This document shows, one piece after another, positions 7,191 to 60,730 of a DNA stretch of 64,000 nt; positions within the stretch are counted from its first letter, which is position 1; every line of letters starts with the position of its first letter. The stretch is from an uncultured Clostridia bacterium. Its GTDB lineage: Bacteria > Bacillota > Clostridia > TANB77 > CAG-508. The translations under genes were made by a program, and so were the position numbers. The notes beneath the pieces are model-generated. The model searched no databases, had not been told where the DNA came from, and worked only from the letters and a program-made list of their open reading frames with translations. The stretch spans positions 954-64,953 of the forward strand of contig CALXND010000001.1 in the NCBI GenBank assembly GCA_944389655.1, written 5' to 3'.

Positions 7191-7717
7191 AATTTTTAAA
7201 ATTTTAACCGCTACTGTTATTAATCATGCTCTTTTTTAATTTTTCTTTTTTCACACTAACCTCCTCTTTTTTAAAATTAATCATAATATTCACTTGTTTC
7301 ATTTGTAAAATCATTTACTACAAATAATACTAGATTGATTTTTTGTATTACGTTTCATCTGTTAGTGTTAATAATAATTTTAGAAAAACAATTGCTAGTT
7401 TTTTTAGAACCATATATTACAACGAATTTTTGCTCAGATGGAGAAGCAGCAATATTAATGGAAAACTTAGTGCTGTGCGTTTCTTGATTGTTTATTATTT
7501 CAGTATTTCTTTTTCAGTAAGCAATCTAGGTGATTTTATAATTTTGTATTCCGCTTTATTATCCTCAAGTGGATTTACACAAATTTGGTCACAAACTTTT
7601 TTGTTCATTTAGGTTTATTTAGTTTTTTTAGGGTTATTTCGTCATTTTTTCTCAAACTAATTAAAACTAAAAGAGTCTAAAAGTGCCTATTTAAAGCCAT
7701 TCTTGAGAGTGGTCATA

Positions 7718-7984
7718 CTAACTAACAAAATACTCCACGTTGTTCTCTGGGAAGAATTCTTTGAACTCTGAATAGAGTTGTCCAGCTAGTGTTTTATTGT
7801 GTGCAAGCACCAATGTTGGCTTCTGTACTTGCTGTATTATGTTAGCCATTGTAAAGGTCTTTCCAGAGCCTGTAACACCTAGAAGTGTCTGGTACTTCTT
7901 TCCTTCTTTTATTCCATTTGATAAATATTCTATCGCTTTAGGTTGGTCTCCTGTTGGCTTATAATCTGAATGTAATTTAAACAT
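7718..7984 (-). pseudogene. uvrB: Truncated 5' fragment (88 codons) of a second, diverged uvrB copy
   Basis: [88 protein letters not shown] is colinear with UvrB residues 1-88 of the 97..2052 gene. DNA identity is about 80%, with a 19-bp identical block across the start codon. The sequence beyond 7718 is unrelated to uvrB. Confidence 0.85.
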
Positions 7985-8030
7985 ATCAACTATCCTTTCA
8001 TAAAACTAAATCTTATTTTATCACTTTTAT

Positions 8031-11403: not shown

Positions 11404-11594
11404 AGTCATAGTTAATATATTTAAAATTTGTTTCAAATATGTCGGTCAAGATGATTTTCAAACTAATTCTAAAGAAATTTTTGCAGCGCCCTCAACAAAC
11501 TTGAGATTCCCTACAAAAATTTCTCAAGAATTAGTATTTTCAAATCACATTCCATTCCATATTCTCACAAATTTTAAATATATTAACTATGACT
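11404..11594. mobile_element. MITE-like element, copy 1 (191 bp, 27-bp perfect TIRs agtcatagttaatatatttaaaatttg / caaattttaaatatattaactatgact)
   Basis: Same element found at 28274..28469 (inverted orientation) and 60433..60622. It has a conserved GC-rich core, ttgcagcgccctca...gattccctacaaaaatttctcaagaattagta. Confidence 0.75.
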
Positions 11595-11631
11595 TTAGCT
11601 AAAGGAACTTTGTAAGTCGTGGATTTTAGTA

Positions 11632-14276: not shown

Positions 14277-14394
14277 ATTTGCCTCCTTTGCTATATTTGC
14301 GATTATACCATATTGTATGTTAAATGGCAAATGTGTTCAAAATGCAATAAAAATCGCCAAAATTAGCTAATAAATAGTTTTATATTCTTCTGTA

Positions 14395-14631
14395 GACCAA
14401 AGCTGTATGGTTTTTATAAAATGTAGTAATTTTCATTTAAGCCAAATATTATATGATTTTTATTTTTGATTGGAGTGCTTAAGGTGGGGACCGACAAGTT
14501 TACAAACTGTTATACGAGGATATTTCCGAGTATTTACAGTTTGTACGCAGTTGGGGGCCGGAAATCAAAAATCAAAATTATATAATATTTGGCTTAATAA
14601 ACATATTTAATAGAACCATACAGCTTTGGTC
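14395..14631. repeat. Large nested palindromic element: 18-bp perfect outer IRs (gaccaaagctgtatggtt / aaccatacagctttggtc), ~70-bp near-perfect inner arms, ~90-bp GC-rich core (ggagtgcttaaggtggggacc...cagtttgtacgcagttgggggcc)
   Basis: Read from the sequence. The core is about 85% identical to the reverse complement of 30480..30575, and a partial arm copy occurs at 18499..18560. Confidence 0.8.
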
Positions 14632-14651
14632 GGCTTTTAAAGTTTTAACCA

Positions 14652-16952
14652 TTAAATAGCATCTCTTGTTAATCTCAAACTATTCAAAGTTACAGTAATG
14701 CTACTTAATGTCATTGCAATTGATGCAAGCATTGGGTTCATTGTTATTCCAGCAAAGTGAAATACTCCCATTGCAATTGGTATCATACAAACATTATAAA
14801 AGAATGCCCAAAATAGATTTTGTTTTATGTTTCTAACTGTTCTTTTGCTAATATTGATTAATTTATCTATTTTTTCCAAATTATCACTCATCAAAACCAC
14901 ATCACTGCTATCCATTGCTATATCTGTCCCACTGCCTACTGCTACTCCAATATCGGCAGTTACTAAACTTACACTATCATTAATTCCATCACCGCACATC
15001 ATAACCATTCCTTGTTCTTTTAGGTGCTTTACTTGATTGGCTTTTTCTTTTGGTAATACATTTGCTATAACTTTATGTATTCCTACTTCATGTGCTATTA
15101 CATCTGCTGTTCTTTCATTATCTCCTGTAAGCATTACTACTTCTATATTTTTTGTTTGTAGTTTTTTTATTGCTTCTTTTGAATTTTCCTTTATTGTATC
15201 TTTAAGGCCAATTAGTGCTATTAATTTCTCGTTTTCTGCAACAAATATAATGCTATTGCCATTTGTCTCCAGTTCTTTTTCGTCTTCTAATGCAAAATCT
15301 ATTGCAATATTGTTTTGATTCATTAATTTATTGTTTCCTACCAAATAACTATTTCCATTATATTTTGCTTTAATTCCATAGCCTGCTATATTCTTAAATT
15401 CTTCTACATTTTCTGGCTCTATATTTTTTTCTTTAGCATAGTTTACTACACCTCTTGCTATTGGATGTTCTGATTTGTTCTCTATGCTTGCTACTATTTT
15501 TATTATTTTTGCATTTTCTACACTTAATACTCCATTTTCTGTGTTTTGTTCTACCTCTGCTTCCTCGACTTGCTTTCTTTCTGCTTCTGTGTCTATTTTT
15601 GCTTTATTTTCGTCTTCTAAATAATTGTATATCTTACTTACACTTAATTTACCTTGTGTAATTGTTCCTGTTTTATCAAAGACTACTATTTTAGCCTTGT
15701 GCGCATTTTCTAGGCTTTCACTATTTTTTATTAGTATTCCGTTTTTACTTGCTAAACCAGATGATGCAACTATTGCAAGTGGCGTGGCCAATCCCAAACT
15801 GCATGGGCAAGCAACTACAAGTACTGTTATTAAAACATTAATTGAAAACGCAATATCTCTTCCAATTATTAACCATACACATGCAGCAAGAATTGCTAAA
15901 ATAATTATTGCCGGAACAAAATATCCGCTTATCTTATCTGCTATTTTGGCGATAGGAGCTTTTGTATTTGTAGCTTCCACTACCATCTTTACAATTTCTG
16001 ATACTGTAGAATCTCTTCCTATTTTTTCTGCTTTATACTTTATCCATCCCTCATAATTAATACTTCCTGCAATTACTTTGTTTCCTACTTCCTTTTTGGC
16101 AGGGATACTTTCCCCTGTGATAAATGCTTCATTTATGTGTGTTACGCCTTCTATTACTTCGCCATCTACTGCTATTTTTTCTCCTGGTTTACAAACCACA
16201 ATATCTCCTTTTGATATTTCGTCTAGTGTTACTTGCTTTTCTTTTCCATCTTTTATTACTGTAGCTTTATTAGGTGTTATAAGCATTAGGCTTTGTATTG
16301 CTTCTTTGGTTTTATCTTTATTTCTATTTTCTACATATCTTCCAATATTTATAAAGAATAGTATAATTACAACAGATTCATAATACAGTCTTTCTACATA
16401 TTCATGGCTTCCTCTTATTATCATATATGTACCATATACGCTATATAAAAAGCTACTTAATACTCCAAGCATAACTAGTGTGTCCATGTTGGCGGTTTTG
16501 TGTATAAGATTTTTATATCCATTTTTTAGAATATCTCTTCCAAGATACATAGCAAAAGCGCTAAACAATGCTAGTATAACCGTATAATTAATTGGGTTTG
16601 TGTGCATACTGAATACAGGTATTTCTGGAAGACCTATCATATGAGCCATAGCAATATATAATGTTAAAATTGCTATTGCCGTAAAAATCCACAATTTGTA
16701 TTTTCCTCTAGATTTTTTCTTTTCTTCTTTTTCTAATTTATCAATTCCTAAACTTTCAAATCCAGCTTTTGCAACAAACTTTTCTATTTGCCCTACATCT
16801 AGTTTGTTTTCGTCATATTCTATACTAGCATTATTCATAACTAAATTCACACTGGCATTTAGTATTCCGTCTTGTTTGTTTAAGTATTTTTCTAAACCAC
16901 TTGAACAAGCACTGCATGTCATTCCATCTATTTTTAATAATACTTTTTTCAT
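14652..16952 (-). CDS. copA: Copper-translocating P1B-type ATPase (CopA), 766 aa
   Basis: N-terminal HMA domain GMTCSACS, membrane CPC motif (ACPCSLGLATP), DKTGT phosphorylation site and the GDGINDS hinge. Confidence 0.9.
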   Translation of the reverse strand: MKKVLLKIDGMTCSACSSGLEKYLNKQDGILNASVNLVMNNASIEYDENKLDVGQIEKFVAKAGFESLGIDKLEKEEKKKSRGKYKLWIFTAIAILTLYIAMAHMIGLPEIPVFSMHTNPINYTVILALFSAFAMYLGRDILKNGYKNLIHKTANMDTLVMLGVLSSFLYSVYGTYMIIRGSHEYVERLYYESVVIILFFINIGRYVENRNKDKTKEAIQSLMLITPNKATVIKDGKEKQVTLDEISKGDIVVCKPGEKIAVDGEVIEGVTHINEAFITGESIPAKKEVGNKVIAGSINYEGWIKYKAEKIGRDSTVSEIVKMVVEATNTKAPIAKIADKISGYFVPAIIILAILAACVWLIIGRDIAFSINVLITVLVVACPCSLGLATPLAIVASSGLASKNGILIKNSESLENAHKAKIVVFDKTGTITQGKLSVSKIYNYLEDENKAKIDTEAERKQVEEAEVEQNTENGVLSVENAKIIKIVASIENKSEHPIARGVVNYAKEKNIEPENVEEFKNIAGYGIKAKYNGNSYLVGNNKLMNQNNIAIDFALEDEKELETNGNSIIFVAENEKLIALIGLKDTIKENSKEAIKKLQTKNIEVVMLTGDNERTADVIAHEVGIHKVIANVLPKEKANQVKHLKEQGMVMMCGDGINDSVSLVTADIGVAVGSGTDIAMDSSDVVLMSDNLEKIDKLINISKRTVRNIKQNLFWAFFYNVCMIPIAMGVFHFAGITMNPMLASIAMTLSSITVTLNSLRLTRDAI

Positions 16953-17311: not shown

Positions 17312-17346
17312 TTTGCGCAAATGGGGTCTGACCCCATTTGCGCAAA
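17312..17346. repeat. GC-rich palindrome copy (tttgcgcaaatggggtctgaccccatttgcgcaaa)
   Basis: Perfect 35-bp palindrome between the flavodoxin-like gene end and the copZ start. Likely terminator hairpin on either strand. Confidence 0.9.
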
Positions 17347-17984: not shown

Positions 17985-18614
17985 TTTGACTCCTTTCTTT
18001 AATCATTGATTACTTTTTTAGATTTTAATTTGCAATTCATTTTCTAGTATTAAATGAATTGCAATTGGTTACAGTATAATGGTTTTAGGACCAGCAAAGT
18101 ACAAAAAACTTGAAAAATATACATATACTTTGCTTTAATTTTGTTATTAAATACCACTATCCTGTAACTGCAATTATTTTTACCTTTTTAATTATATTTA
18201 TTAACCCTTGTATTAATGTTACAATTTATTGTTGAATTTTTCCTTTACAGTTATTATTTTAATGATTTAATTGCTTTTACAGTATTATATCAAATACAAT
18301 CAAATAACAACTTACAGTTACTATTTGCTACTGATGCGCTTAATTCAGATTTTCTTTCGCAACTTGATTTATCATATTAGCATAGTCTTTTAATTTTTCA
18401 TCTAACCTCGTTTGGCACTTTACAAATACTTTAACTAATTTGCTTACATCATCTGTAGTCTGTGCATAATATAATGCTTCTTTATATTCTTTATTGTACT
18501 CATTATCTTATTTGGCTTAATAAACATATTTATTAAAACCATACAGCTTTGGTCTATAGAAGAATATAAAACCATTATATTGTAACTGTTTTTCTATTAA
18601 AACTTTAATTCGTA

Positions 18615-25958: not shown

Positions 25959-25980
25959 ATGCTCTCTCTCCTTTGTTCTT

Positions 25981-26012
25981 TTGCGCAAATGGGGTCAGAC
26001 CCCATTTGCGCA
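25981..26012. repeat. GC-rich palindrome copy (ttgcgcaaatggggtcagaccccatttgcgca)
   Basis: Perfect palindrome read from the sequence, lying between two minus-strand genes. Confidence 0.9.
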
Positions 26013-28134: not shown

Positions 28135-28273
28135 ATGTTATCACCTCAATTTCTGCGAATTGTACTCTTTATTTAATAATACTACTATTTCTTGCTTTTT
28201 TCCATCATTTATTCTAAATTAAATCTTACATTTTGGTAAGATGTTACAATTCACGGTCATTTCTATTTAGCAT

Positions 28274-28469
28274 AGTCAGAATTAATTTATTCAAAATTTG
28301 TGAAAATATGGAATAGAATATGATTTGAGAATACTAATTCTTTAAAAATTCTTGTAGGGAATCTCGTGCTTTGCCGTGAGGGGCGCCACAAAAATTTCTT
28401 TAGAATTAGTACGAAAATCAGCTTGACCGACATATTTGAAACAATATTTTTAATATATTAATTCTGACT
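28274..28469. mobile_element. MITE-like element, copy 2 (inverted orientation relative to copy 1)
   Basis: TIRs agtcagaattaatttattcaaaatttg ... tatttttaatatattaattctgact. The core is the reverse complement of the 11404..11594 core. Confidence 0.7.
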
Positions 28470-28516
28470 TTATACCAAAACTTTATTGGGCGGTAAATTG
28501 TAACAGTAAGACTTTT

Positions 28517-30377: not shown

Positions 30378-30393
30378 TTATGTTTCCTCCATT

Positions 30394-30646
30394 TTGCGCT
30401 GGTTGGGGGACTTAGCTTATTTTGCGCAATCTTCATCATATTTTAAATGTTAATTTATATATTTTTTCTTTTTAGTCTTCGGCCCCCAGCATCGTACAAA
30501 CTGTAAAATTCCACTAACGTGTATTTAACAGTTTGTAAACTTGCTGGTCCCCACCTTAAGCACTCCGACTAAAAATAAAAAATATATAAATTAACTAAAA
30601 ATTCAAATAATATTTGCGCAAAATAAGCCCGTCGCCAACCAGCGCA
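30394..30646. repeat. Composite palindromic element inside the ABC/TCS operon: outer IRs ttgcgctggttggggg.../...ccaaccagcgca enclosing a copy of the GC-rich core shared with 14395..14631
   Basis: Left arm ttgcgctggttgggggacttagcttattttgcgcaa, right arm ttgcgcaaaataagcccgtcgccaaccagcgca. The internal segment cttcggcccccagcatcgtacaaactgtaaaa...cttgctggtccccaccttaagcactcc is the reverse complement of the 14470..14560 core. Confidence 0.8.
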
Positions 30647-33268
30647 TTAAATATTTTCTTTTCTAATGGTTTCTATAATATTTTGTTTATTTATTTTGCT
30701 TATCGCAAATTTCATTATTATAAATATTATAGCAAGTACAAATACCGAAGCGGCAATGATCGCACCAATTGGCCATATGAAGCCAAAGTCCAAAGATTTG
30801 GCAAATGCTTTATATATTGCAAATGAAGCAATTAGTCCTAAAACAATTCCATATAGTAAGGCTTTAAATGAGTAAAATACTGTTTCTAGATTTATCATTT
30901 TATTAAATTCTTTCCTTGTCATTCCAATACTTTTTAGCATTGCAAATTCTTTTTGTCTTAGCTCTATATTGGACGTTAATGTATTAAATATGTTTGTTAC
31001 TCCTATTAAAGTAATAACTACAATAAATCCATATGCAAATATTGATGTTAATAACCTTACTGCCTGATAAAACTTCACTTGTTTATCAATGTTTTGAACG
31101 GTACAATCATGATATGTTTCAGAAAGATTTCTTTCTACCTCTGTTGGATTTTCCACATTTATTGCTATGTCTGTAGGTTCAAAGTCTATTCTATCTTTAT
31201 ATCCATCTACATTTATTATGATAGCACCATTTCCATATGTTGCACCTTCTAATCCACTTGGCATTTTGTCTGTAATTTCCGCTATTTCTAGGTCGAATTT
31301 TTCTCCGTTTAATTCACCTTTTAGCGTATCTCCTTTTTTGTAATTATAGGTCCTTCCTCTAATTGTTGTCCCATCTTCCTGGTAAATATTTGAATAATCA
31401 TTAAATATTATTTTATCTTTTACAGTATTATAATTTAAATTAAGCTCTTTTGCAAACTTTTTAAAATCTTTATTATCTAAACCTATAACAGTAGCTTGTG
31501 GTGCATATTCATCAGTTTCATTATATCCCATTTTTTCTATAGCAAAATCAGATACAATATTTTCATCTTGTAGTGTCATGAAAGCAGACTCTTCTCTATG
31601 TGATACACCATAAATTAGAGTATAATCTTCAAACTTCTCGTTATGCAATATATCTAGTAACTCTTCCCCTCCTGTTTTGGTTGAAATTACTTTAATATTG
31701 TAGTCATAATCTTCATAATATCCCCCCATAGCTTCAAATGCATATGTAATTAACGTAGATGTTGCAATAAATATAAATACGCTAATAGCAATTGATACTA
31801 CAGTGGTTCTATATTTCTTTTTACTTCTTTTTAAGTTTTTATATGCTATTACTCCACCAATTCCAAATATCTTTTTAATTATTTTTGGTGATTTTACTTT
31901 TTTACTATTTACTTTTATCTCTTTAGTGCTTCTTATTGCTTCTAAAGGTGTTACCTTTCTTGCTTTTCTTGCAGCGGACAAACAAGATAAGTAGACCGTT
32001 ACTATTCCTAACATAGCAGCTATAATAATTGGTAAAATAGATATACTAAACACAACTTCTACATCTACAACTCCATTTAGAATTTTCCTTACAATTATTA
32101 CTAAAATGTATACAGCTAATATCCCTGCTAATATTCCAACTGGTATACCAATTAGACTTAAAAGCATTCCTTCCTCTATTACGCTTTTTTTAATTTGTTT
32201 CTTAGTTGCACCAACACTAGATAACATTCCATACATTTTTATTTTTTCTGTTAATGATATCGAAAACGCATTTTTAATACAATACACACTTGTTATCATT
32301 ATAATTACAATTGCTACGATTGCAACTGCAAAAATCATTGCTATAGTAGAATCGCTTGCACTTAAAGCTTCCCAATTTAACAAATCATAATTTATAGAAT
32401 AAACATAATCGGTATCAGCAAAATTTCCAGAGTTTAGTTCTAAGCCTATCATCTCTTTAAAATCTTCCTCACAGTTTCGTGGATTACTAAGAGCAATATA
32501 AATATCCTTTTTTCCTTCTTCTAATCCATTTGTAATGCATGCAAAACCTGCATCTTGTATGAAAGATATTCTCCTTATAGGCATATCATTGTTTGATACA
32601 AAACCTACTATAGTAAACTCTCTGCTAAAATTTACTTTTAAATTTTCCTCTGTTATTCTTTGTGGCTCACTAATATTTTCTCCTATAACAAGTTCGTTAC
32701 TTGTAGTTTTTTGACTCCCATCTGGTTTATATGCATATTCATAAGGTAAATAGTCCCATCCTGAATTAATATATTCCTCTCCTGCATATCTGTCACCTAA
32801 ATTTAATGTGACTTTATCTCCTATTTTATATTCCTTTGTAGAATATTTTAATATATCTTCATTAATTAATATTTCATTACTATTCTCTGGATATCTACCA
32901 TCTATTAACTCAAGATGCATATTATCAAAACTATTCATATCCATTGAATATAAATGAATATACGGTCTATCACTATTAGTGTTGCCCTCAAGATTAGAAT
33001 ATCCAACATCTTTTACTACATTTACATCTTTTACATCACGATTATTTCTGAATTTTTCTGCATCCTCATTAGTCACATTAGACAATTTCAAATGATAATA
33101 TCCAGTATCTTTAACAATAGTCTCAACCATACTTCTTTGAAGGCTCGTAGCCATTCCTGCCACAGCACAAATAAGAGCTGTTGATAATACTATTCCAATA
33201 ATTGTGCCTATAGTTCTTTTTTTGTTTAGCTTAAAGCTTCTCACAGTAAGCTTTTTAAAAATATTCAT
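30647..33268 (-). CDS. ABC transporter permease with two FtsX-type modules, each carrying a large extracytoplasmic domain (YbbP/MacB-duplicated type), about 873 aa
   Basis: Hydropathy by eye shows TM1, ECD1 (~250 aa), 3 TM, TM5, ECD2 (~220 aa), 3 TM. Start is set at MNIFKK with GGAAGGAG upstream; the track start MRRGRSKG reads into the repeat. Confidence 0.8.
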   Translation of the reverse strand: MNIFKKLTVRSFKLNKKRTIGTIIGIVLSTALICAVAGMATSLQRSMVETIVKDTGYYHLKLSNVTNEDAEKFRNNRDVKDVNVVKDVGYSNLEGNTNSDRPYIHLYSMDMNSFDNMHLELIDGRYPENSNEILINEDILKYSTKEYKIGDKVTLNLGDRYAGEEYINSGWDYLPYEYAYKPDGSQKTTSNELVIGENISEPQRITEENLKVNFSREFTIVGFVSNNDMPIRRISFIQDAGFACITNGLEEGKKDIYIALSNPRNCEEDFKEMIGLELNSGNFADTDYVYSINYDLLNWEALSASDSTIAMIFAVAIVAIVIIMITSVYCIKNAFSISLTEKIKMYGMLSSVGATKKQIKKSVIEEGMLLSLIGIPVGILAGILAVYILVIIVRKILNGVVDVEVVFSISILPIIIAAMLGIVTVYLSCLSAARKARKVTPLEAIRSTKEIKVNSKKVKSPKIIKKIFGIGGVIAYKNLKRSKKKYRTTVVSIAISVFIFIATSTLITYAFEAMGGYYEDYDYNIKVISTKTGGEELLDILHNEKFEDYTLIYGVSHREESAFMTLQDENIVSDFAIEKMGYNETDEYAPQATVIGLDNKDFKKFAKELNLNYNTVKDKIIFNDYSNIYQEDGTTIRGRTYNYKKGDTLKGELNGEKFDLEIAEITDKMPSGLEGATYGNGAIIINVDGYKDRIDFEPTDIAINVENPTEVERNLSETYHDCTVQNIDKQVKFYQAVRLLTSIFAYGFIVVITLIGVTNIFNTLTSNIELRQKEFAMLKSIGMTRKEFNKMINLETVFYSFKALLYGIVLGLIASFAIYKAFAKSLDFGFIWPIGAIIAASVFVLAIIFIIMKFAISKINKQNIIETIRKENI

Positions 33269-33284: not shown

Positions 33285-33397
33285 CTGCGCAATTGGGGAC
33301 GGGCTTGTTTTGCGCAAGTTTAGTTATGTTTATAATTATAAATTTACTATAAAATAATAATATTTGCGCAAAACAAGCCCGTCCCCAATTGCGCAAA
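33285..33397. repeat. Palindrome-family variant pair (ctgcgcaattggggacgggcttgttttgcgcaa ... ttgcgcaaaacaagcccgtccccaattgcgcaaa) flanking a 46-bp AT-rich spacer
   Basis: Perfect 33-bp inverted arms read from the sequence. Confidence 0.85.
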
Positions 33398-33435: not shown

Positions 33436-33467
33436 TTGCGCAAATAGGGTCTGACCCTATTTGCGCA
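33436..33467. repeat. GC-rich palindrome copy (ttgcgcaaatagggtctgaccctatttgcgca)
   Basis: Perfect palindrome, a variant of the family consensus (tagggtctgaccctat). Confidence 0.9.
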
Positions 33468-34122
33468 TTTTTCCGTCCTCTATTTCTATGACTCTATCTG
33501 CTATTTTTGCAATTTCTATATTATGTGTAATCATAATAATAGTTTGCTTATATTCTTTGTTAGATTTTTTTAATAAATTTATTATTTCGTCACTTGATTT
33601 TGAATCTAAATTTCCTGTTGGTTCATCGGCTAGTATTATGCTTGGGTTTGTAATTATTGCTCTTCCAATTGATGTTCGTTGTTGTTGTCCACCAGAAAGT
33701 TCATTTGGTAAATGCTTCCTCCTTGTTTCTAATCCAAGTGTTTTTAATAAATTATTTAATTCTTGTTTATCCACTTTTCTATTATCTAAATCACAAGGAA
33801 GAGTTATATTTTCCTCTACATTTAATATTGGAATTAAATTATAGAATTGATATATTAACCCCACTTGTCTTCTCCTAAAAATTGCTAAATTATCGTCATT
33901 CATTTTGTATATATCTTTGCCATCTATAAATACTTTTCCACTGGTTGGCCTATCTACACCTCCAATTAAATGTAGTAGTGTGGACTTTCCACTTCCACTT
34001 GCTCCAACTATCGCAACAAACTCTCCTTTGTCTACTGTAAATGAGATGTTGTCTATTGCAACTACTTTAGATTCGTCTTTTCCATATACTTTAGTTAAAT
34101 TCTCTACTCTTAGTATTTCCAT
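33457..34122 (-). CDS. ABC transporter ATP-binding protein (partner of the 30647..33268 permease), about 221 aa
   Basis: Walker A GASGSGKST, LSGGQQQR signature and Walker B ILADEPTGNLD. The track start is a GTG; ATG MEILRV with AAAGGGTG upstream is preferred. Confidence 0.9.
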   Translation of the reverse strand: MEILRVENLTKVYGKDESKVVAIDNISFTVDKGEFVAIVGASGSGKSTLLHLIGGVDRPTSGKVFIDGKDIYKMNDDNLAIFRRRQVGLIYQFYNLIPILNVEENITLPCDLDNRKVDKQELNNLLKTLGLETRRKHLPNELSGGQQQRTSIGRAIITNPSIILADEPTGNLDSKSSDEIINLLKKSNKEYKQTIIMITHNIEIAKIADRVIEIEDGKMRK

Positions 34123-39622: not shown

Positions 39623-39821
39623 TTTCTAATCCCAATCCTTTCCTAAATTGTATGTTACGATTCACAGCCTATTTCTTAAAGCTACTCCAAATATTATATT
39701 TCTCTTAAGTAGTTCCACGTGTATTCATCTAACAGCAAGGGAAAGCGGATTTTGTATAGATTATTTTTAATTAGATGTGAATTGTAACCGTTCCTTTTTT
39801 AGCCTAGATAATATATGTTTT

Positions 39822-43066: not shown

Positions 43067-43097
43067 ATGCGCAATTGGGGACGGGTTTATTTTGCGC
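43067..43097. repeat. Palindrome-family variant (tgcgcaattggggacgggtttattttgcgca)
   Basis: Related to the 33285..33317 arm, upstream of the GGDEF-EAL gene. Confidence 0.8.
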
Positions 43098-43217
43098 AGT
43101 TTTATTCAAATATTTTTAATTAATTCGTAATATTTTTAATAATGTAATTTTTAATTTAAAGAGAAGTTAGTTTAGCTTATAATTTTATATTGAATCAGGT
43201 AATGCAGTAATATCTAA

Positions 43218-44087
43218 CTAAACGCGAGTTTTTGCGCAAAAGGGGGCTGACCCCATTTGCGCAAATTTTTCCATGTCTCTTCTTCCTTCTTCATATAACT
43301 TTCTTAGTTTCTCTTTATCTTTTTCAAGCCTTGATACAGTTACAGGTACTTCTGGTGCCACAACAAATATTCTACCTTGTTTTTCTAGCTCATTTATGTG
43401 TTCTTTTAGTGCGTTATATCTTTCTGGCATGGTACATAATTTTTCTACTAGTTTTGGGTATTTATGGTAGACTCTTTTATATACTCTTTTCATTGTATTT
43501 GATATTTCTGGCTTTCTATAGTTTCTATCTCGTGTAAGTACTACTAAAATGTTCTTATGACCTTGCTTTATTGCCCAATCTACTGGTATTGGCATTGTTA
43601 TTGCTCCATCTAGATAGTGGTTGTTCCCTATTTTTACCATTTTTGAGCAAAGTGGCATGCTTGATGATGCTTGCACTACTTTGAATATATCTCCTCTACA
43701 TTCATTTTTTTCTACGTATTCTGTAGTTCCTTTTTCACAATTTGTTATTACTGAAATGAATTTTTGCTTTGATTCTTTAAATGTATCATAGTTAAACGGA
43801 TTATCTTCTTTTGAGATTTTATTAAATAGATAATCATAGCCTATTAATCCGCCTTCTTTTCTAAGGGCTTTTAGCCCTATATATCTAGGATTGTCACAGT
43901 ATTCTATGTTTATATCTTTACTTCTGCTTTGTTGTTTTGATATGTAATTCATCCCTGTGAGCGCTCCTGCTGATACTCCTAGTACATAATTGGCCTCTAT
44001 TTTATATTTCATTAATACGTCTAATACTCCTGAGGTGTATACGCTTCTTAATGCTCCACCTTCTAATATTAATGTTAGTTCTTGCAT
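43218..44087 (-). CDS. Patatin-like phospholipase, 289 aa (C-terminal ~15 codons encoded by a palindromic repeat)
   Basis: Oxyanion hole GGALRS and nucleophile elbow GVSAGA (G-x-S-x-G). The stop codon lies inside the palindrome at 43231..43265. Confidence 0.8.
   Translation of the reverse strand: MQELTLILEGGALRSVYTSGVLDVLMKYKIEANYVLGVSAGALTGMNYISKQQSRSKDINIEYCDNPRYIGLKALRKEGGLIGYDYLFNKISKEDNPFNYDTFKESKQKFISVITNCEKGTTEYVEKNECRGDIFKVVQASSSMPLCSKMVKIGNNHYLDGAITMPIPVDWAIKQGHKNILVVLTRDRNYRKPEISNTMKRVYKRVYHKYPKLVEKLCTMPERYNALKEHINELEKQGRIFVVAPEVPVTVSRLEKDKEKLRKLYEEGRRDMEKFAQMGSAPFCAKTRV
43231..43265. repeat. GC-rich palindrome copy (tttgcgcaaaagggggctgaccccatttgcgcaaa)
   Basis: Near-perfect palindrome read from the sequence. 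Confidence 0.9.
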
Positions 44088-55102: not shown

Positions 55103-55135
55103 TGCGCAAAAGGGGTCTGACCCCATTTGCGCAAA
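55103..55135. repeat. GC-rich palindrome copy (tgcgcaaaaggggtctgaccccatttgcgcaaa) immediately downstream of polC
   Basis: Near-perfect palindrome read from the sequence. Confidence 0.9.
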
Positions 55136-59544: not shown

Positions 59545-59643
59545 TTGCGCTGGTTGAGGGCAGACTTATTTTGCATAACCTTCATCATGTTTTTAATTGT
59601 TAATTTATATATGAGCAAAACAAGCACATCCTCAACCAGCGCA
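59545..59643. repeat. Palindromic element between polC and rseP (ttgcgctggttgagggcagacttattttgca ... gagcaaaacaagcacatcctcaaccagcgca), same architecture as 30394..30646 without the large core
   Basis: Outer inverted repeats tgcgctggttgagg / cctcaaccagcgca read from the sequence. Confidence 0.75.
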
Positions 59644-60380: not shown

Positions 60381-60432
60381 ACACACGTCCTTTTATGTTA
60401 CTTATCACAGTATAATAACGTTTTTGCCTGAT

Positions 60433-60622
60433 GTCAGAGTTAATATATTAAAAATATGCAAACGAATATGTCGGTCAAGCTGATTTTCGAACTAATTCTA
60501 AAGAAATTTTTGCAGCGCCCTCAGCCAGCAGAGATTCCCTACAAAAATTTCTCAAGAATTAGTAACTTCAAATCACATTCCATTCCATATTCTCACATAT
60601 TTTGAATATATTAACTCTGACT
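60433..60622. mobile_element. MITE-like element, copy 3, between cdsA and rseP
   Basis: TIRs gtcagagttaatatattaaaaatatg ... catattttgaatatattaactctgac. About 90% identical to copy 1 over the core. Confidence 0.7.
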
Positions 60623-60730
60623 ATAGTAAAAGGGGTTATACTGTGATAAGTACCATCTTTATTATTGACTTTCAATCGTATATAAACTTAATTGTAGTCA
60701 TTTATTAATTTAAGAAATCCATTTAATAAA

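Follow-up and report, generated by a model that had tools for sequence, protein, structure and literature searches.

We consider it reasonably probable that the large palindromes described here are copies of a high-copy MITE family of uncultured gut Clostridia, with a structured core that is under selection and with an orientation-dependent effect on neighbouring transcripts. Two whole copies, elements A and B, lie in the window, by which we mean the entire 64,000-nucleotide stretch of DNA that was analysed. The window is part of a metagenome scaffold and is 70–86% identical to the carrier MAGs in shared genes.

Two palindromes with a common core

All four palindromic features that a sequence-only reading had picked out in the window (14395–14631, 30394–30646, 59545–59643 and a partial arm at 18499–18560) were found, with the coordinates and sequences it gave. 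The outer 18-bp inverted repeat of element A, GACCAAAGCTGTATGGTT, is indeed perfect (14395–14412 paired with 14614–14631) and has a third copy at 18537–18554, against a chance expectation of 0.03. The inner arms, which had been described as near-perfect over ~70 bp, do form a stem, but one of 35 bp: the AT-rich 5' strand of this stem, P1 (14437–14471), is 94% complementary to the 3' strand (14563–14597), and a poorly paired internal loop of 24 × 16 nt separates P1 from the outer 18-bp stem. P1 encloses a conserved 91-nt core (14472–14562, score 130.8 bits with covariance model R1), whose G-rich strand is the plus strand.

The partial arm is confirmed as a solo right arm of the A type (18504–18590, plus strand, 92% identity to 14581–14631) just downstream of metK. 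Its similarity to A exceeds the 18-bp repeat that had been noticed and reaches a GTTAC-type terminus, its terminal sequence …ATTATATTGTAAC being the GTTACAAT terminus. Because A-type similarity runs out to such a terminus, we place the whole of element A at approximately 14363–14663 on the plus strand. Alignment with its closest relative, at locus L016, gives the same long-form MITE, with ends that are approximate and degenerate in A.

Element B (30392–30646, G-rich strand on the minus strand) carries the core and P1 inside a different, REP-like outer palindrome. Its 89-nt core (30478–30566, 125.9 bits) lies between the 5' strand (30567–30595) and the 3' strand (30449–30477) of P1 as read on the minus strand, and the outer stem (TTGCGCTGGTTGGGGGAC…TTTTGCGCAA) pairs 30392–30429 with 30613–30646. 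The claim that the core of A recurs inverted in B holds, with 81–89% identity between 14449–14585 and 30455–30589, but the common part is larger than had been thought, since it includes the adjacent AT-rich stem: the shared module spans ~137 nt, with that stem around the asymmetric 91-nt core (GGAGTGCTTAAGGTGGGGACC … TTGGGGGCCGRA). The 21-mer GGAGTGCTTAAGGTGGGGACC occurs exactly twice in the window, at 14472 (plus) and 30546 (minus), with a chance expectation of 0.00 and no match in shuffled sequence. Folded whole, the two elements reach −84.5 and −108.9 kcal/mol, with z ~ −12 relative to shuffles.

The outer sequence of B, TGCGCTGGTTGRGG, brackets both 30394–30646 and 59545–59643. It had been said to occur alone between polC and rseP; the sequence is there, between polC and an M50 (RseP-like) peptidase gene, but as part of a B-type copy derived by internal deletion, which retains the whole left arm up to TTAATTTATATA and is without core, P1 and right inner arm. 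A further B-type outer palindrome at 33286–33395 (TGCGCAATTGGGGACGGGCTTGTTTTGCGCAA…) is core-less and retains part of one inner arm (TATAAATTTACTAT). The B-type shell is built from a REP-like outer stem, GCAAAAGGGGACGGGCTT…, followed by ~20 non-complementary nucleotides and then the inner stem.

Genomic context of the two copies

The genes around both elements are all on the minus strand. Element A follows copA (HMA/E1–E2 ATPase), and the right terminal sequence of A (14647–14663) contains the last three codons of copA together with its TAA stop (14652–14654, minus strand), the stop codon falling within the last 12 nt of the element. The end of the copA gene therefore appears to have been supplied by insertion of element A. 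Element B fills the gap from the stop codon of an FtsX-permease gene (30647–30649) to the GGAGG ribosome-binding site (30386–30390) of a response-regulator gene, which is paired with a histidine-kinase gene; the element ends 1–3 nt before the GGAGG. Both copies had been taken to sit inside operons. This is clearly so for B, between permease and regulator, whereas A is followed by a promoter match for the next gene: a near-consensus site with 11 of 12 positions matching (TTGCCA-17-TATAAT, plus a TG upstream) is found immediately downstream of A at 14302–14330 on the minus strand. Judging from this match, the kinase-like gene following copA may have its own promoter.

At the site orthologous to B, locus L046 (MAG CAMMEP) has an unrelated MITE instead. 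This MITE-like family (L046 770–1170, termini ACAATCCAACTAGTATGTATGTTT) has 14 copies among the sampled loci and occupies the same permease/regulator site as B.

Several other repeats occur in the window. About 10 REP-like intergenic hairpins share the consensus TTTGCGCAAATGGGGTCTGACCCCATTTGCGCAAA, with small GCAAATGGGGTC…GACCCCATTTGC forms; they include 9722–9759/9796–9832, 17312–17346, 25980–26012, 33436–33469, 43068–43104, 43233–43265 and 55103–55135. The motif TGGGG(A/T)C is common to these hairpins, to the outer stem of B and to the bulge of the core. The outer stem of B and the small hairpins of the window are short, extragenic, imperfect palindromes of high copy number without duplications, as REP/BIME repeats are; the core module is not of this kind. 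A second MITE family, at 28243–28504 with relatives at 11423–11605 and 60396–60639, has the same termini as the core-bearing MITEs, GTTACAATTCACGG, around an unrelated interior of ~230 nt, and a 135-nt element at 39654–39788 is bounded by the same GTTACAATTCACGG termini. A 287-nt direct repeat (1772–2058 and 7704–7990, 78% identity) probably arose by duplication of part of a gene, since its two copies match one and the same stretch of L046.

Termini and target duplications

Elements of the family are 140–320 nt long and non-coding, within the ~600-bp size limit of MITEs. The commonest form measures 190–206 nt and in most copies has the ends GTTACAATTCACRG / CYGTGAATTGTAAC; forms with GTTACAATTCACRG-type terminal inverted repeats span 190–300 nt. 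Beside GTTAC termini we found 8-bp duplications, seven of them perfect and seven near-perfect (7/8). The L016 relative of A, for example, has GTTAC-type ends and the 8-bp duplication CACAAAAT. Duplications of this length are the hallmark of a DDE transposase provided in trans, and by its terminal inverted repeats and 8-bp duplications the family is a MITE of the DDE type. The earlier proposal of composite, non-autonomous mobile elements is borne out by these terminal repeats and duplications in the relatives, by differing occupancy of sites and by more than 130 copies.

The window copies are less complete at their ends. In A the terminal inverted repeats are degenerate, and no target duplication is detectable at A or at B; window A is an old, degenerate copy of the long-form MITE. 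Elements with the B-type shell have no target duplication, and B is also without GTTAC termini. In both shells the core-less versions resemble internal deletions, and core subfamilies track shell type. An independent, nested insertion of the core was considered and set aside, as the core-less shell at L031, TTTTATAAAA, fits an AT or TA duplication and deletion of the hairpin equally well.

One transposase system seems to move several cargo types. A transposase gene with matching ends was not found in 0.87 Mb of flanking sequence, and clustering of 728 ORFs in search of a parent element returned housekeeping paralogues only. Pairs of GTTAC termini 0.6–4 kb apart, which might have marked a parent element, proved to belong to two different MITEs with ordinary genes between them (RelA/SpoT, RelB, holin, Replic_Relax). 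A tblastn search of the sampled sequence for a Y1 transposase, with an IS200 TnpA query, gave no match, which is a weak negative. An IS200/IS605-type PATE was rejected as a description of the family, which has terminal inverted repeats, 8-bp duplications and a single hairpin.

The core hairpin and its covariation

Every copy folds as a single long hairpin. From base to tip, as read on the G-rich strand, the AT-rich stem P1 is followed by a 3 × 3 purine loop (GGA/GRA), by P1b, in which G(U)GCUU pairs with GGGC-C, and by a 10-nt bulge, AAGGUGGGGA. Above the bulge come P2 (CCGAC/GUUGG), an internal loop (AAGUU/CGMW), P3 (UACAAACUGU/ACAGUUUGUA) and a variable apex of a few to ~130 nt, which contains no ORF even in the long-apex variants.

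The pairing of the hairpin is conserved. Across 89 distinct copies, pairing is seen in 97.4% of cells and compensatory changes in 22 of 33 pairs; none of 500 shuffles matches the observed value, slid structures pair in only 36–49%, and the outcome is unchanged after P1b and divergent copies are added. P1b switches from GUGC/GCC to GUUC/GAAC, CGUC/GACG or GGAC/GUCC. Covariation is found in P1, P1b, P3 and the apex, and the 10-nt bulge with the 5' strand of P2 (CUUAAGGUGGGGACC) and UUGGGGG are nearly invariant. The structured module that the sequence-only reading had offered as an alternative is thus real, with conserved pairing and 22 pairs that change in compensation. To measure core conservation free of ascertainment, we used the 18 secondary copies, those that had not brought in their own locus: the full 21-mer is present in 2 of them and the 15-mer CTTAAGGTGGGGACC in 15. 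Constancy is greater in the core than in the termini, on which recognition by a transposase depends.

A recurrent variant, which makes up ~9% of copies and is spread over several types of arm, has GCCAAAGGGCC in place of GUUGGGGGCC / GTTGGGGGCC, which breaks P2; in this variant (L021, L027, L031, L039, L047, L078, L095 and L096) TTGG is exchanged for its complement CCAA plus an A. The 3'-strand variant showed no enrichment in sense-oriented copies (five antisense, two sense).

Several readings of the core sequence were rejected. A mini-ORF (GGAG-N8-GUG GGG ACC GAC AAG UUU ACA AAC UGU UAA) was discarded: in subfamilies that have lost 1 nt or carry CTTACAAAGTGTTT, the frame or the stop disappears and the pairing stays. 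The bulge AAGGUGGGGA shares all 10 nt with a universal segment of 16S rRNA, and this match was dropped, ~0.3 such matches being expected by chance. Hammerhead and twister core motifs do not fit, either by eye or by Rfam. An integron attC site was likewise dismissed: P2 (ACCGAC / GTTGGGG) misfits the R''/R' boxes (RYYYAAC / GTTRRRY), and the copies are dispersed singly between housekeeping genes instead of forming a cassette array.

Copy number and host range

In a scan of species-representative genomes, the matches listed put the exact 21-mer in at least 113 stretches, all of them from 15 species-level MAGs assigned to uncultured Clostridia or Clostridium sp. With just 2 of the 18 secondary copies containing it, true copy numbers exceed the exact-match count several-fold. 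The covariance model, based on the 89 distinct copies, gave 118 matches in 0.71 Mb of MAG sequence and two in the window, at 131 and 126 bits, after which the best score was 21 bits. In all, more than 130 copies were seen, at 95 independent sites. The sequence-only reading had staked its proposal on further copies and on conserved pairing, and both are plentiful: at least 113 stretches and 22 compensatory pairs.

All genomes examined are short-read MAGs. Several contigs start or stop inside the repeat, and in L006, L011, L029 and L033 matches lie less than ~100 nt from the contig start. Rfam, whose families include hammerhead, twister, pistol, hatchet, HDV-like, HEARO, 6S and Y RNA, gave no match over the window at gathering score, and chance miRNA-hairpin matches only at E up to 10. 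The element was not found in IMG/VR viral contigs, where three 15-mer matches in G+C-rich contigs had no surrounding element and are ascribed to chance; blastn of plasmid and phage collections gave no match, and the core sequence was not found on either strand in the searchable literature.

Strand preference and placement

The two window copies differ in orientation, and the arrangement had accordingly been called orientation-independent. This holds for the pair but not for the family, in which the core is antisense to flanking genes at a ratio of 4:1. Where the flanking genes are co-directional, the G-rich strand is antisense to them at 45 of 57 independent sites and sense at 12 (p = 1.3e-5), and the bias is present in both shell types; at convergent and divergent sites it is weak (16 vs 11). 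Because the flanking genes always follow the majority direction of their locus, gene direction and presumed replication direction are inseparable as causes of the bias. Copies lie right against stop codons: between the centre of the core and a facing stop the median distance is 120 nt, roughly half the length of an element.

Folding of the core in both orientations, a check proposed earlier, found the G-rich strand more stable in 89 of 89 copies (mean MFE −29.3 vs −21.7 kcal/mol). GNRA apical loops occur 15 times on the G-rich strand and never on the other, the P2 pair is a G.U in 66 of the 89 copies, P1b also has its G.U pairs on the G-rich strand, and both 3 × 3 loops are purine–purine there; all strand-specific features point to folding of this strand. 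The arms show no strand preference, G.T (38) and A.C (30) mismatches being balanced, so that for the arms a palindrome acting at the DNA level fits as well as RNA. As the best-folding strand is absent from most read-through mRNAs, a cis-acting RNA role would need antisense transcription or transcription of the element's own.

A promoter consensus was not found within the elements. The suggestion that the hairpins attenuate read-through is unsupported, for there is no U-tract after the hairpin in either orientation and no terminator-like site in or next to A or B.

Conservation of orthologous insertions

Twelve independent insertions are shared at orthologous sites by different species. In these pairs the arms have diverged by 2.3% and the core by 1.5%, compared with 6.35% for the flanks (element vs flank odds ratio 0.30, p = 1e-16); codon positions 1, 2 and 3 of the same pairs differ by 4.0%, 2.2% and 15.2%, and other intergenic DNA by 7.1%. 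The copies had been picked for an intact core and the 21-mer was left out of the comparison; the arms are free of that selection. In one three-species alignment a 235-nt element has one substitution and one indel, and the adjoining genes differ by ~8%. The arms are copy-specific, so conversion from other copies cannot account for the low divergence. These results show that purifying selection acts on the retained copies as strongly as on second codon positions, and the core of ~90 bases probably has a function. In a comparison MITE family a single orthologous pair was available, at 2% divergence too close to be informative.

In two orthologous pairs, L042/L065 and L093/L102, the differences are equal in number on the two arms (3 + 3 and 8 + 8), which suggests that changes came in pairs or that a whole copy was replaced.

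Relation to known repeats

The nearest described analogue is bcr1, a MITE-like repeat of ~155 bp in the Bacillus cereus group. The bcr1 repeats, which are also from Firmicutes, are interspersed and non-coding, with short direct repeats and strain-variable positions, and their fold is kept by compensatory base changes (PMC3184786). The likeness lies in the short flanking direct repeats, the variable positions and the compensatory changes. However, the direct repeats of bcr1 are 5 bp long and it forms two independent stem-loops, whereas the Clostridia family has 8-bp repeats and a single long hairpin whose asymmetric bulge is invariant; the two are not similar in sequence. Transcription is documented for bcr1. 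The Correia/NEMIS repeats of Neisseria, ERIC and RUP are likewise gene-adjacent, high-copy elements of 100–200 bp with terminal repeats and duplications, forming long hairpins when transcribed (PMC3184786). In those families it is the termini that are conserved, in contrast to the Clostridia family, where the internal core varies less than the ends do. The target duplication of Correia and ERIC is TA, not 8 bp, and no counterpart of the known promoter or IHF sites was found in the Clostridia family.

The outer palindrome of B and the ~10 hairpins of the window resemble REP/BIME repeats in being short, G+C-containing and extragenic, in lacking duplications and in forming mosaic units. REPs are 20–40 nt long and tied to RAYT transposases and a 5' GTAG motif, and the 91-nt core has no REP equivalent. 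The BOX repeats of Streptococcus pneumoniae (boxA–boxB–boxC) also combine a common module with different flanking modules and a predicted stable fold, but their modules are in tandem, not nested palindromes, and are unrelated in sequence. IS200/IS605-derived PATEs share a strand-asymmetric hairpin, conserved unpaired bases and orientation bias; unlike the Clostridia family they are without terminal repeats or duplications and have separate left-end and right-end hairpins. The Clostridia repeat family belongs to the known class of structured bacterial MITEs and is new in its sequence, host range, 8-bp duplication and invariant asymmetric core.

Interpretation and alternatives

In the reading that we favour, forms with GTTAC ends would be mobilised by a DDE transposase acting in trans, and in B the same central module is carried inside a different, REP-like palindrome that makes no duplication. 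Each insertion would bring the core along, and the core may be a single-strand structure that binds protein or nucleic acid, RNA being rated more likely than DNA. Depending on orientation, the module could then affect neighbouring transcripts, and insertions that place the G-rich strand in an mRNA would mostly have been purged. The copies that remain may serve the host, or at least be constrained by it, as structured intergenic elements like REP or bcr1.

A simpler proposal is that the family is a purely selfish MITE without a role, its core the passenger of a recently amplified master copy and its apparent conservation the product of recent bursts and symmetrisation of the palindrome. High copy number, terminal repeats with duplications and many internally deleted derivatives are what such an element would leave, and the absence of strand-specific wobble in the arms and the failure to find promoter or terminator in the elements agree with it. 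We nevertheless regard it as quite unlikely: neutral decay predicts 7–15% divergence where copy-specific arms and unpaired loops are as conserved as second codon positions, symmetrisation should erase rather than preserve an asymmetric bulge, and neither the 4:1 orientation bias nor a core more constant than the transposase-recognised termini is expected of a passenger. If the core instead worked as a non-coding RNA made from the G-rich strand (protein-binding, a sponge or a small catalytic RNA) and spread within mobile palindromes, its copies would be transcribed on their own or antisense to their neighbours. The motifs confined to the G strand (GNRA loops, 15 vs 0; tandem G.A 3 × 3 loops; G.U pairs; lower MFE in 89 of 89), the invariant purine-rich bulge and the purifying selection in place all point this way. 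Yet no Rfam family matches, including all the self-cleaving ribozymes held there, and no consensus promoter was found within the elements. Moreover, GNA and GNRA loops, sheared G.A and G.T also stabilise hairpins of single-stranded DNA. We rate this proposal as unlikely.

Another possibility is that the core is a single-stranded DNA hairpin for an HUH/Y1 enzyme (IS200/IS605-like or REP/RAYT-like) or for a structure-specific recombinase, its orientation bias being coupled to replication. An asymmetric hairpin with a conserved bulge and a strand preference would suit such an enzyme, as would the TGGGG(A/T)C shared with REP-like hairpins of the same genomes, the B-type shell without target duplication and the coincidence of the bias with the majority gene direction. 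But terminal repeats and 8-bp duplications, which are not products of HUH elements, are present in the major forms, and there is little bias where genes converge or diverge (16 vs 11). The folding strand lies on the presumed leading-strand template, contrary to the rule for IS608, which is the opposite. Together with the lack of a Y1 match in the sampled sequence, a weak negative, this makes the proposal very unlikely. We think it most improbable that the hairpins are transcription terminators or attenuators between co-directional genes, even though they are very stable, lie directly after stop codons and are conserved in place as regulatory sites might be. They have no U-tract, their T-rich 5' arms and A-rich 3' arms read alike on both strands, no terminator-like sites occur in or beside A or B, and B stops 1–3 nt before the ribosome-binding site of the next gene of its operon.

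Beyond the favoured reading of a MITE family with a selected core lies a bolder form of it, which we put forward tentatively as possible though doubtful: the core would be a new class of structured module, likely an RNA of the G strand with the bulge AAGGUGGGGA as its binding or catalytic part, which has colonised at least two unrelated palindromes and become domesticated by its hosts. If true, this would explain both an evolution as slow as that of second codon positions and the constrained orientation.

Some consequences are practical. The repeat fragments short-read assemblies of the MAGs that carry it, and it lies inside operons and over stop codons, as at copA, which makes it relevant to annotation. 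MITEs are usually seen as decaying junk in which the ends alone are constrained, whereas here the interior is the most constant part. The core is asymmetric and strand-specific and is common to transposase-type and REP-type shells, and whole copies are better conserved between species than other intergenic DNA. If the same is true in closed genomes, the family would offer a tractable case, in abundant uncultured gut bacteria, of a mobile element that carries, or is becoming, a functional structured module.
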